Assembly: GCA_000442015.1 (NCBI GenBank)
Contig: KE561209.1
Location: 310,001-374,000, forward strand
DNA from: Rozella allomycis CSF55
Lineage: Eukaryota
DNA length: 64,000 nucleotides
Direction of reading: 5' to 3'
This document shows positions 26,452 through 28,740 of the stretch, one piece after another (the stretch's first letter is position 1; the number at the start of each line of letters is the position of its first letter). Made by a program: the position numbers and the translations under genes. The notes under the pieces were generated by a model. It searched no databases and was not told where the DNA came from. It worked only from the letters and a program-made list of their open reading frames with translations.

Positions 26452-28740
26452 ATGAAAATTTTTCTTATCGCACTTTCCCTTTTACTCGGCATAAATGCTA
26501 AAATATTCAAGCGCAGTGACCAAGATATCCAAAACAAGAAATTGGGGGTTCTCACTGACGAATATCTAAATGGCATATTTCGGGAAAATCATATTGCCAC
26601 AGTTGGTGCACACACGATCGAGAATAGCGAAAATCTGATAATTCAATATGGTGATCCAGTGAGGGATGATTTTGAGAATGAGATTTCCGATATGTTAAAG
26701 AGTCTAGTACCCAAATTCGAGAAAGATGCGGATTATTGCAGATTTTTGGCTTCTGTTACTTGGAGGAGCACCACAACATTGAATTCTGAAGAAGGTCTTC
26801 AATATAATATGCTTCTTCATGACTGTCTTTTAAAGCACGACAAAAAATACATGACTAAAGATCCAGACGTAGTTAAGTTTTTGGAAAATTTAAAGGTGAA
26901 TAGCGATTTCAAGTTATGCTTTGAAGAGAAAAAATTAGCAAAACTCACACCTTCAAGGTTTTTAAGTTCTCTTAAAGGTAGGTGTAGTCAATTTTTTGCC
27001 ACCAGTGCTGGTAAAGCATTCTACTCAAGATTAGAGGAATTATTAAAACGCAATGTTATTTCCAATTGTGGGGGGTCTTCTGTAGCAGATAGCGCAAATC
27101 CGCTGAAACATTTGGATTCAGCTCAAACTTGTACTATAGAGCCAAAAGGCAGAATTATTAGAGTACCAATTGAACACCCAGATTTATTAACATACAATAA
27201 GCCAGATGTTAGAGATATAAAACCAAATGTAACTCCACTATATGAGATTCTTCATTACATTGTCAAGGCGCAGGCAGAAACCGATGATGGAAATGTTTTT
27301 CTTCTCACTATTGGGATCAAACCAGACAACAACGATGCTACTTGGGAATATTACCTTTTGGACGAGGACAAAGCCAGTAAGAGCCTAAAATTTAGCAACC
27401 TTCAAATGGTATTTCTTATACTTTCCATTATTTAGGGACCTTTGCATTCAATAACTGTTCCTTTAGTGAAACACGCAAGTACCGACGAGTTGTATGTCTA
27501 CGATCCTGTATTGCAGCTAACCCCAAAGTATAGACAAGGTCATTTTATGACAGTTGGGAATTACCTTCAAATGATTGAAAAAGGTTTACATAATTCAGTC
27601 CCCAAAGATAAATTAGCAGTTTTCATATCAACCTTTGAAAGTACGCTTACTTCTGAATATGTGTGGCATGCTTTAGAAACCGCAATAATTAAGGACGTTG
27701 CAAATAACTTGAAGAACTATGTACCCTTAGAGCAAAATTTGAAGAGCGATCTAATTCTCCAGACTTCCACGCTTTTCAAGAAAAAGACTGAAAGACAATG
27801 GACTAATGTATGTGACTTAATTCAGTATTACGTGGCCCAACATGCCATTGACCGATCTAATGATTACGCTAATGCCATGCGAAAATATAGTGCAATCACA
27901 GATATCACATTGAAACAAGTTGATATTTTGCAAGGAAAGCAAAATATTACAAAATCACTAAAAAAACTTTCACAGTGGGCTATGAAGGTCATGGCTTCTC
28001 AAACTCATTGTATTATGGAGAACCTTCCAACACAAAAGGAAACTGCTGCCACTTTTGCCGTGGCCTTAAACGATGATATCACGGATAATAATTTTTATTT
28101 TGGATTTTCAAACGGCTATCGAAGTAAAAATGGTATTTCTCTTTCAGATCGCCAAAAAGTTGTGGATATGTGTTTGAAACAGTATTTTGTAGCATGGCCC
28201 GCTGAGTTTAATAATGATATGTCTTTTATAAGAGAGTTACATGAGCGTAAAGTGAGGCAAGAACCTGCAAAAGCAGCTAATTATGCGATTTCTAATTGTG
28301 CTGAAGATCAATGCTGTTCATTATCCATCTTTCAGGGTCCTTTGAGAGACGATGCTGATTTTGTTATTAATAAAGATTCATGGCCAAGTGTGATGCCATT
28401 GATCGTATTTTCTTATCGGTACTATAAAACACCTTCTCGATATTTCTTGGCTCCTATTGATAGATGCAGAAACTGTCAGCAATATAGAATTTACAAGGAC
28501 CAGAATTATCCTGATGGGATCGATGTTTCGTTTCAAGGACTAGCTATAACAGACTGGATATTTGAAACAATGAGGCAAGAATTTAACCGACTTGATATTT
28601 TTGGTATACCAAATGGTGTGAGAAGACATGCCACAAATCCATTACCTATTGATAAAATGAAGGAGCTAAAGACTTTTCTAAAGACAAATTATGACGCATT
28701 AAGAGTTCACGAAGAAACTAAAATTTACGCAACGACTTAA
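26452..28740 (+). CDS. Secreted 753-aa protein with putative papain-like triad and C-terminal deaminase-like domain
   Basis: Signal peptide MKIFLIALSLLLGINA; 27-nt intron 27409-27435 joins ORFs 26419-27435 and 27442-28740 in frame; motifs SNCGG, LHSITVPLV, YVYDP, ISNCAED, APIDRCRNCQ. Confidence 0.75.

Follow-up and report, generated by a model that had tools for sequence, protein, structure and literature searches.

A secreted-type orphan protein of Rozella allomycis carrying a candidate deaminase module

A gene of at least two exons and its paralogs

The window, that is, the whole stretch of 64,000 nucleotides that was analysed (contig KE561209.1, positions 310,001 to 374,000), comes from Rozella allomycis, in agreement with the fungal-type genome proposed in a preliminary description of this DNA. 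Positions 26452-28740 of its forward strand correspond, judging from the sequence, to a single gene with at least two exons (Table 1). The reading frame extends from ATG 26452 to TAA 28738-28740 with TAG 27433-27435 as its sole internal stop, and once 27409-27435 are taken out the spliced product has 319 + 434 = 753 aa. The gene is already public as the hypothetical protein O9G_000163 (EPZ31684.1) of R. allomycis CSF55, whose model contains the same 27-nt intron, and the junction SNLQM/GPLHS is common to the two public models of the gene (P0001 and P0004). The single 753-aa gene of the preliminary description was thus recovered, with the frame, the conservation with the paralog P0002, the introns of the neighbouring gene and the public models all in agreement. 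The same description had considered the connection of the signal peptide to the C-terminal domain as hidden; this has to be corrected, since the public gene model already joins both.

The ORF list shows the gene as two ORFs, and the 27 nt are divisible by three so that the frame is kept without splicing. Both observations would suit a true stop at TAG 27433, leaving either two genes (one for a 327-aa secreted protein and one, from ATG 27547 on, for a 397-aa protein) or a pseudogene. However, the second ORF has its first ATG 37 codons downstream of the TAG, and the translation of these codons (27436-27546) is conserved in P0002, so that they are coding. The stretch has GT..AG ends, and its size and ends resemble those of two introns of the upstream neighbour gene (30 nt at 26021-26050 and 29 nt at 26195-26223, with ends GTAA..TTAG), which contain a stop or shift the frame and are flanked by exons that match a public protein almost perfectly. 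The 27 nt are also spliced out in the public annotations of two assemblies, made independently, and the frame is otherwise intact on either side over 753 codons. We consider a true stop very improbable. Reassignment or read-through of TAG was likewise disfavoured, since TAG terminates 8 of the 29 long ORFs checked and the intron accounts for the site. Three other in-frame GT..AG stretches, candidate mini-introns that would separate the 753-aa from the 728-aa model, are present in the gene (Table 1); at the most downstream of them, the residues are retained in the gene models of the paralogs P0002 and P0003.

Table 1. Positions in the window of the gene, of its motifs and of the convergent neighbour gene.
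Feature	Position	Strand	Remarks
Exon 1	26452..27408	+	319 codons; public O9G_000163 / EPZ31684.1
Signal-peptide-like start	26452..26499	+	MKIFLIALSLLLGINA/K; likely cleavage after INA; read by eye
In-frame GT..AG stretch, 27 nt	26869-26895	+	
In-frame GT..AG stretch, 24 nt	26958-26981	+	
Probable spliceosomal intron, 27 nt, GT..AG	27409..27435	+	GTATTTCTTATACTTTCCATTATTTAG; the TAG is its last triplet
Exon 2	27436..28740	+	434 codons plus TAA
C-terminal module, 316 aa	27790..28737	+	common to all three family members; 7 invariant cysteines
Predicted beta-hairpin, candidate strands 1-2	28051..28116	+	TFAVALNDDITDNNFYFGFSNG
Extra in-frame GT..AG stretch, 24 nt	28124..28147	+	spliced out in the public 728-aa model
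CAE, candidate zinc ligand and catalytic glutamate	28297..28305	+	inside invariant CAEDQCC
CRNC, candidate second and third zinc ligands	28465..28476	+	at predicted helix start; R-C-x-N-C invariant
Convergent neighbour gene	28794-30053	-	419-aa protein, hydrophobic leader, no Pfam family

The N-terminus looks by eye like the signal peptide previously claimed for it. The region that follows is shared with P0002 only: residues 20-420 of P0004 matched P0001 and P0002 and nothing else among 3299 candidates, and Pfam contained no family for it. Four cysteines of this N-terminal part are conserved with P0002. The identity between P0002 and P0004 is about 90% across residues 23-62 (the mature start) and just 25-30% in the next stretch, and the gene upstream of the P0002 locus is near-identical to the one upstream of the studied gene. 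We also considered the convergent neighbour as a possible cognate immunity protein, but nothing connects this protein to the module.

An exhaustive single-sequence phmmer search with the C-terminal module, run with no length limit over 1.84 billion representatives, retrieved three proteins at E <= 0.001, every one of them from R. allomycis CSF55. Pattern matches numbered 8 in prokaryote genomes and 590 in metagenomes, none of which were confirmed, and a profile search with the three-sequence module alignment gave 0 of 2318 candidates of near length at E <= 0.1. The sequence searches thus showed no relatives beyond R. allomycis. The third protein, P0003, consists of a hydrophobic leader, a MACPF domain that Pfam places at residues 148-367 (E 9e-19) and the module, with about 270 residues separating the last two; its residues 637-958 align to window positions 27784-28737 with 32% identity. 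The module thus recurs behind differing fronts (n = 3 proteins), which are an N-terminal region of their own in P0002 and the window protein, and a signal peptide with MACPF in P0003. No paper on Rozella and a secreted deaminase, or on Rozella and MACPF, was found in a full-text search of the literature outside subscription journals. On these sequence grounds we regard the protein as real, that is, as a genuine and putatively secreted orphan effector.

The C-terminal module and its likeness to deaminases

In the prediction, the module starts with three helices, continues as an alpha/beta core and ends in two further helices. All the strings quoted in the preliminary description were found, namely the hairpin TFAVALNDDITDNNFYFGFSNG, NCAED, FSYRY and APIDRCRNCQ. 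The invariant residues of the hairpin are T, V, N, D, D, Y, G and N, and its predicted strands are E87-94 and E102-107 in the model of the 316-aa module and E9-13 and E24-28 in that of a 206-aa core. CAEDQCC and R-C-x-N-C are invariant in the three family members, as are [G/S]xCAE and CxNC, although the paralogs are only 32% identical. Conservation in homologs had been set beforehand as a refutation test of the deaminase idea, and CAE and CxxC were kept in 3 of 3 members. In the numbering of alignment A2, CAE contains Cys170 and Glu172 and CxNC contains Cys226 and Cys229. The invariant cysteines of the module are odd in number (n = 7), and three zinc ligands plus two disulfides would fit this count. 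Further conserved polar residues occur in SxRYY, YR and TDW, and in NYxALRxHEE near the C-terminus. By our estimate, a CAE..CxxC pair taken alone would be expected by chance in a few proteins of each proteome.

Structure prediction gave models of low confidence. With AlphaFold2, the mean pLDDT was 51.4 for the 316-aa module, in which the CAE region was drawn as coil at 24-30, and 34.5 for the 206-aa core, in which CCSLSIF, just after CAE, was drawn as a strand. In both of these low-confidence models the CxxC lies at a predicted helix start (H225-239 in the module, H148-160 in the core). The predicted order, again at low confidence, is hairpin, helix, strand, helix, [CAE], strand, CxxC-started helix, strand, helix, strand, which agrees with the deaminase order strand1-strand2-..-helix2-strand3-helix3-strand4-helix4-strand5. 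A Foldseek search of the 316-aa model against the PDB had none of the 52 matches listed at E <= 0.001; the best of them, the EsaD/EsaG complex (E 0.77), is noise, and no weight is given to a cytidine deaminase of M. tuberculosis listed at rank 39 (E 8.7). Of the exported deaminase proposed in the preliminary description, the exported part is in line with the MACPF-fused paralog; the deaminase fold was neither borne out nor contradicted by these models and the blank Foldseek search.

Sequence comparisons pointed to the YwqJ-like toxin deaminases in a suggestive, not decisive way. Among named clusters, the neighbours found with a language model included YwqJ-deaminase (11% share, score 0.87), the YwqJ-like deaminase family (score 0.85 at 100% share) and MsddA-like (13% share, score 0.82), all scores below 0.9 being leads only that may also key on the motifs. 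With hhalign, the three-sequence profile aligned to 14 YwqJ domains over 94 columns (score 25.4, P 0.0052, probability 7%), LH falling on LHP, CAE on C[AP]E/HAE and CxxC on CxxC, and this register was identical for four of four queries (the profile and the three single sequences). None of 200 plain column shuffles reached the score, whereas 9 of 200 did when the CAE and CxxC columns were fixed (mean 18.7 versus 25.4 for the real profile). Most of the hhalign signal is therefore due to the motifs and their spacing, that is, to the very thing under test. P0002 alone gave P 0.18 against YwqJ, and with a less diverse template of 12 YwqJ sequences the probability was 0.4% and 3 of 100 shuffles reached the score. 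In the YwqJ alignments, one of 13 loci (L129) was omitted, its match being short (profile positions 9-97). Pfam had no family for the module at E <= 10 and none over the gathering cut-off of PF14431 (25.9 bits), an HMM built from 12 YwqJ domains scored it at -0.4 to -1.1 bits with all filters off, and neither the exon-2 protein nor the module profile matched a PDB sequence at E <= 10.

The YwqJ clade is characterised in Table 1 of PMC3239186 by Gx[CH]xE in helix 2, and the part of that paper on this clade describes inserts between strand 2 and helix 2 (with a conserved histidine) and between strand 3 and CxxC, "several members" that end early after helix 3 or strand 4, and eukaryotic (basidiomycete) members. 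As far as this part of the source goes, Gx[CH]xE and both inserts are compatible with the Rozella module. The motif reads GSCAE in P0003; in P0002 and the window protein it is SNCAE, Ser replacing Gly. At the place of the first insert there are 62 aa. In the three proteins an 'LH' lies 19-21 residues before the Cys of CAE. The hhalign register pairs this LH with the invariant LHP of YwqJ, whereas the MAFFT alignment does not bring the three histidines into one column. A strand 3-CxxC insert was found in the low-confidence models, as a predicted strand at 203-212 followed by 13 residues up to C226, and as a strand hairpin (124-134 / 138-143) before the CxxC helix in the 206-aa core. The early end of the YwqJ type was not observed, the module being predicted to run about 85-90 residues past the CxxC helix (strand-helix-strand, then two helices); as a trait of several members only, such an end is not required for the clade.

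The module thus resembles the YwqJ-like domains (PF14431) in its C-terminal position within an exported multidomain protein, in [G/S]xCAE followed by C-R-[SN]-C about 56-62 residues further on, and in the 'LH' about 20 residues ahead of the CAE cysteine. It differs from them in being more than twice longer than the 138 Pfam positions of their domain, with three added N-terminal helices and an insert of about 40 aa after the hairpin, and in lacking the HG that precedes CxxC invariantly in the YwqJ sample. Delivery would also differ, with a eukaryotic signal peptide in Rozella and T7SS, T5SS or Rhs for the YwqJ-like toxins, and no adjacent immunity gene was recognised for the Rozella module, unlike for the YwqJ-like ones. 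The OTT_1508-like clade, for which Table 1 of PMC3239186 lists members in fungi and a helical insertion ahead of helix 2, was set aside by eye, the module being without its GxxK before CxxC.

The canonical deaminases of the CDA/TadA/dCMP type (PF00383) share with the module a beta-hairpin whose end reads G-x-x-N ahead of the catalytic helix (G105 and N108 are invariant in the Rozella family), an [HC]AE motif and a CxxC at a helix start. The G-x-N end of strand 2 had initially been ascribed to the YwqJ-like toxins; it was in fact seen in the PF00383 sample and not in the 14 YwqJ sequences. Unlike PF00383 deaminases, the module is without a proline directly before CxxC, and its spacings are far above those of canonical deaminases, with 62 residues between hairpin strand 2 and CAE and 56 between CAE and CxxC, versus roughly 10 and 25-35 in the PF00383 sample. 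With a set of 20 canonical PF00383 deaminases, hhalign aligned no more than 13 columns, those around [HC]AE (P 0.14); YwqJ against PF00383 gave P 2.4e-5.

Possible functions of the module

Rozella allomycis is a wall-less intracellular parasite of the water mould Allomyces. We give about even chances to the reading in which the module is a divergent zinc-dependent nucleic-acid deaminase, nearest to the YwqJ-like bacterial toxin clade, that acts as an exported toxin. The zinc would be held by Cys170 of [G/S]xCAE and by Cys226 and Cys229 of CxNC, Glu172 would be the proton shuttle, and the other four invariant cysteines of the module would form two disulfides. Two inserts may cap the substrate pocket, a large one that separates strand 2 from helix 2 and a hairpin between strand 3 and CxxC. 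The parasite would export the protein into the host cytoplasm, the MACPF-fused form possibly acting across a host or competitor membrane. The target reaction could be cytosine deamination in single-stranded DNA or RNA, by comparison with YwqJ of B. subtilis, presented in part of a preprint as a ssDNA cytidine deaminase toxin (bioRxiv 10.64898/2026.09.29.755374).

The module could also be a non-catalytic, disulfide-stabilised binding or targeting domain in which the cysteines of CAE and CxxC are structural and the likeness to deaminases is due to chance, which we consider somewhat unlikely. In MACPF/CDC pore-formers the C-terminal domain usually performs membrane or receptor targeting, and the module occupies this customary place in P0003; moreover, the module is cysteine-rich and every protein that carries it has a secreted-like start, and the conserved cysteines of secreted proteins are more often disulfides than metal ligands. 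Such a domain would be in line with the failure of the Pfam, HMMER and PDB sequence searches to detect a deaminase family, with the motif-preserving shuffles that reached the hhalign score and with the absence of a confident fold from AlphaFold2 or Foldseek. On the other hand, seven invariant cysteines cannot all pair, and the residues between MACPF and the module of P0003 could already perform the targeting. Conservation also extends beyond the cysteines to the glutamate of CAE and to a small residue two positions before its Cys, the CxxC marks the start of a predicted helix in both models, and the language-model neighbours and hhalign indicate toxin deaminases specifically and not random families.

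Another kind of enzyme or metal-binding protein, such as a thiol peptidase or a zinc hydrolase acting via the Cys of NCAE, or an undescribed fold, would suit the conserved polar residues located outside the deaminase motifs as well as a size over twice that of the YwqJ domain, and no known family matches the module. However, no peptidase or other Pfam family was obtained even at E <= 10, toxin deaminases are the sole named neighbours with any consistency, and the invariant His307, in a C-terminal helix predicted at low confidence, is not obviously catalytic. We regard this possibility as quite improbable.

If the module is a deaminase, Rozella might have a eukaryotic counterpart of polymorphic toxin systems, with a deaminase warhead, swapped fronts including a MACPF pore-former, and sharply diverged versions of a locus. 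We hold this broader proposal to be unlikely. Module swapping of the toxin type is present, in a small sample of only three proteins. Within this proposal, the MACPF pore-former could bring a mutator or editor of its own through a membrane of the host, of an organelle or of a competitor.

Implications and comparison with other secreted proteins

Should the module be an active deaminase, a eukaryotic intracellular parasite from the base of the lineage of fungi and microsporidia would export a nucleic-acid-modifying toxin of bacterial type, and its MACPF-fused paralog would be an unusual chimera of pore-former and enzyme. If the polymorphic-toxin reading were true, this would be the first deaminase effector in a parasite of the fungal lineage and a new, very divergent deaminase scaffold. 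Very divergent toxin deaminases have proved useful starting points for base editors. If the module is not a deaminase, the three proteins would form an ordinary, lineage-specific family of secreted orphans. The discussion of eukaryotic cognates of toxin deaminases in PMC3239186 considers, in the part relevant here, most of them as unlikely to be secreted toxins.

To our knowledge, the SNADs, a group of secreted deaminases of animals, have no MACPF-fused forms. They are described in sections of PMC5889660 and PMC11004436 as AID/APOBEC-like zinc deaminases with a signal peptide; as far as these sections go, a cysteine-ligated deaminase can therefore travel the secretory pathway. Unlike the Rozella protein, SNADs belong to the AID/APOBEC clade (HxE..PCxxC) and have a role in host immunity; the present comparison is one of features.

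The C-terminal module of P0003 had no sequence relation to any solved chain. The best PDB sequence match of P0003 as a whole was perforin-like protein 1 (E 2.4e-4). Like P0003, the perforin-like protein 1 of the parasite Toxoplasma (PDB 5oup) combines a signal peptide, a MACPF domain and C-terminal accessory domains, whereas the protein encoded in the window, unlike parasite pore-formers, carries the module without MACPF.

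Gene model and very short introns

The gene occupies 26452-28740 of the plus strand as one frame with one interruption, the TAG at 27433-27435. Excising the 27-nt stretch that ends on this triplet fused 319 and 434 codons, and we thus reproduced the 753 aa announced in the preliminary description, all of whose quoted strings were found in the sequence. The N-terminus (MKIFLIALSLLLGINA followed by K) resembles a signal peptide when judged by eye, as had been proposed.

Coordinates of putative introns and other excised stretches
Feature	Position	Strand	Length	Remarks
Putative intron	27409-27435	+	27 nt	GT..AG ends; final triplet is the TAG
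Intron, upstream HEAT-repeat gene	26021-26050		30 nt	N-terminal part of paralog P0002 mapped onto the window
Intron, upstream HEAT-repeat gene	26195-26223		29 nt	N-terminal part of paralog P0002 mapped onto the window
Further stretch cut out by the 728-aa public model	26869-26895			In-frame GT..AG, without stop
Further stretch cut out by the 728-aa public model	26958-26981			In-frame GT..AG, without stop
Further stretch cut out by the 728-aa public model	28124-28147			In-frame GT..AG, without stop

The interrupted frame could also mean that the TAG is a true stop or that the gene is split, which we consider highly improbable. The R. allomycis paralog P0002 matches at the protein level the 37 codons from the TAG to the following ATG, indicating that coding resumes directly past the 27-nt stretch, and the annotations of two assemblies share the same junction. 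Introns of similar size exist in the adjoining gene; both have similar ends, a stop or frame change inside and almost identical flanking exons. The three stretches in these two adjacent genes measure 27-30 nt with GTA..TTAG/TTTAG ends, and introns as short as this seem to be the norm here. There were no grounds for a changed genetic code, the 29 long ORFs checked in the window being closed by TAA (15), TAG (8) and TGA (6).

The in-frame stretches excised by public models (24-27 nt) are putative introns. At the last site of the table, the models of P0002 and of a second paralog, P0003, retain the residues; the 753-aa version is at least as plausible as the public 728-aa model. The exon-2 protein matched at 98% 'hypothetical protein ROZALSC1DRAFT_29213 [Rozella allomycis CSF55]' (phylum Rozellomycota), whose cluster includes EPZ31684.1 (O9G_000163), which lies in the reference assembly on a contig of 719 kb and is identical to the window across the aligned part. 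The gene and its intron are thus already annotated publicly, without function or domain.

Family range and architecture

When 1.84 billion representative proteins were searched exhaustively with phmmer, three matched at E ≤ 0.001, all from R. allomycis CSF55: the protein itself (P0001), P0002 (64% identity) and P0003 (32%, E 4.6e-32). The match of P0003 was confined to 27784-28737, which delimits a C-terminal module of ~316 aa. The module profile recovered no additional relative among 2318 word-sharing candidates of like length, and no relative was confirmed among the pattern matches in prokaryote genomes (8) or metagenomes (590). Among 3299 candidates, the N-terminal 400 residues were present in P0001 and P0002 only.

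P0003 (RKP19276.1), encoded outside the window, is a 972-aa protein comprising a hydrophobic leader, a MACPF domain (residues 148-367, Pfam E 9e-19), ~270 residues matching no Pfam family and the shared module. The top PDB sequence match of this MACPF was Toxoplasma perforin-like protein 1 (E 2.4e-4). Two unrelated front ends, of which one is a pore-former, therefore precede the same module. The protein of the window has a signal-peptide-like start and a two-part architecture, and its module is reused behind MACPF. The 90%-identity cluster of P0003 has a single member, from a single-cell assembly, and the reference annotation has no protein on record at least 90% identical to it.

Comparison of the module with YwqJ-type deaminases

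The module had been described as a toxin-like CAE..CxxC deaminase domain. The motifs of this reading held up, [G/S]xCAEDQCC and R-C-x-N-C being invariant in the three proteins, as are a T..V..ND..D...Y.G..N hairpin, SxRYY and several later motifs. Counting against the reading, searches for the domain itself were blank: no Pfam family matched the module at E ≤ 10, a YwqJ HMM gave negative bit scores with filters off, PDB sequence searches with the exon-2 protein and the module profile gave no match, and none of the 52 Foldseek matches listed reached E ≤ 0.001. AlphaFold2 modeled the module poorly (mean pLDDT 51.4, pTM 0.60) and failed outright on a 206-aa core (pLDDT 34.5). On the supporting side, the order predicted in the poor model of the module (hairpin, helix, strand, helix, [CAE], strand, helix from CxxC, strand, helix, strand, two helices) is compatible with a deaminase core plus inserts. 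Among named language-model neighbors, whose scores below 0.9 are leads only, YwqJ-deaminase clusters came first (0.87 with 11% share, 0.85 with 100% share), and an MsddA-like cluster was also present (0.82, 13% share); the top unnamed neighbors were Ascomycota clusters of 225-241 aa (0.91-0.92).

Natural YwqJ domains were gathered from bacterial genomes with PF14431, which matched 2 of the first 5 genomes, 10 of 201 in one class, 0 of 301 in one phylum, 0 of a further 5, 1 of 401 in a second phylum sample and 0 of 401 in a third. With a 12-sequence template, hhalign aligned CAE with C[AP]E and brought the two CxxC motifs together, not significantly (P 0.15; score reached by 3 of 100 column shuffles). 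Adding two proteobacterial members gave a score of 25.4 over 94 columns (P 0.0052, probability 7%) and put the Rozella LH onto the invariant LHP of YwqJ; the register was identical for the profile and all three single sequences. Plain column shuffles never reached this score (0 of 200; mean 12.4, SD 2.4). When the columns of CAE (three) and CxxC (four) were kept fixed, shuffles averaged a higher 18.7, with the real score reached in 9 of 200, so the signal is mostly motifs and spacing and the remaining sequence contributes little. As a positive control, the YwqJ alignment matched 20 canonical PF00383 deaminases with P 2.4e-5; the Rozella profile aligned with these over 13 columns only, around [HC]AE (P 0.14).

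Table 1 of PMC3239186 defines the YwqJ clade by four listed features. Its Gx[CH]xE is present in P0003, whereas the other two Rozella proteins have Ser for Gly; the strand 2-helix 2 insert is present, its conserved His being plausible and alignment-dependent; the strand 3-CxxC insert was seen in both low-confidence models; and the frequent C-terminal truncation is not shared. The HG preceding CxxC, invariant in the sampled YwqJ domains, is also absent. Because of these mismatches, we did not assign the module to PF14431.

We give about even chances to the module working like a YwqJ-type deaminase. Its invariant cysteines are seven, and this odd count fits three zinc ligands plus two disulfides; the N-terminal part has four in common with P0002. 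A disulfide-rich targeting domain is a rather unlikely reading of the same module, whose layout is that of a warhead or cargo domain and could also be that of a targeting domain. Another enzyme type or a new fold is less probable still.

As a YwqJ-type deaminase, the protein would be exported from the wall-less intracellular parasite into the Allomyces cytoplasm, or would cross a target membrane with the N-terminal part assisting. Cys170, Cys226 and Cys229 (module alignment numbering) would hold zinc, with Glu172 as proton shuttle, and the substrate would be cytosine in ssDNA or RNA of the host. YwqJ of B. subtilis has been reported to be an ssDNA cytidine deaminase toxin (bioRxiv 10.64898/2026.09.29.755374), and the animal SNADs show that there are deaminases with a signal peptide (PMC5889660, PMC11004436). 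Neither the gene model, which is public, nor the kind of thing proposed is new; if the proposal is true, the novelty would lie in the variant, an extremely divergent deaminase module that is secreted and MACPF-associated in a parasite of the fungal lineage. In the open-access full texts searched, we found no paper on Rozella, deaminase and secreted together, nor any linking Rozella with MACPF.

Surroundings of the gene

P0002 (RKP18136.1) comes from a 5.9-kb contig of the single-cell assembly, in which the window version lies on a separate contig. In its public model two genes are wrongly joined into one and the exon with the signal peptide is left out. Compared with 25240-28737, its upstream HEAT-repeat gene is almost letter-for-letter that of the window; identity is 90% over residues 23-62 of the public model P0004 (start of the mature protein), 25-30% over 103-182, then 50-82%. 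The pattern suggests either a second allele that has diverged sharply or a recently duplicated copy with a recombination boundary within the gene.

The TAA that closes the HEAT-repeat gene (26386-26388) lies only 63 nt (26389-26451) ahead of the ATG of the 753-aa frame, and unless the promoter is within the upstream gene it must be very short. The convergent neighbor (28794-30053, minus strand), 53 nt past the gene, encodes 419 aa that begin with a hydrophobic leader (MKNILLLLFFASFMIANP) and match no Pfam family, and its product is a candidate for another secreted orphan. Other genes of the window are ordinary eukaryotic ones (SF3b1, RhoGEF, ELYS, MBOAT, Ty3-type gag-protease). The G+C content is 31-38%. 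Two adjacent minus-strand ORFs (34320-34772 and 34859-36232) have nearly the same ~140-aa MBOAT-type C-terminus; the shorter contains X from N bases (167 N in the window), and the pair suggests either that part of a gene was duplicated in tandem or that the assembly is at fault. The Ty3/gypsy-type gag-protease ORF (57227-58744, plus strand) carries capsid, zinc knuckle and retroviral aspartyl protease domains.
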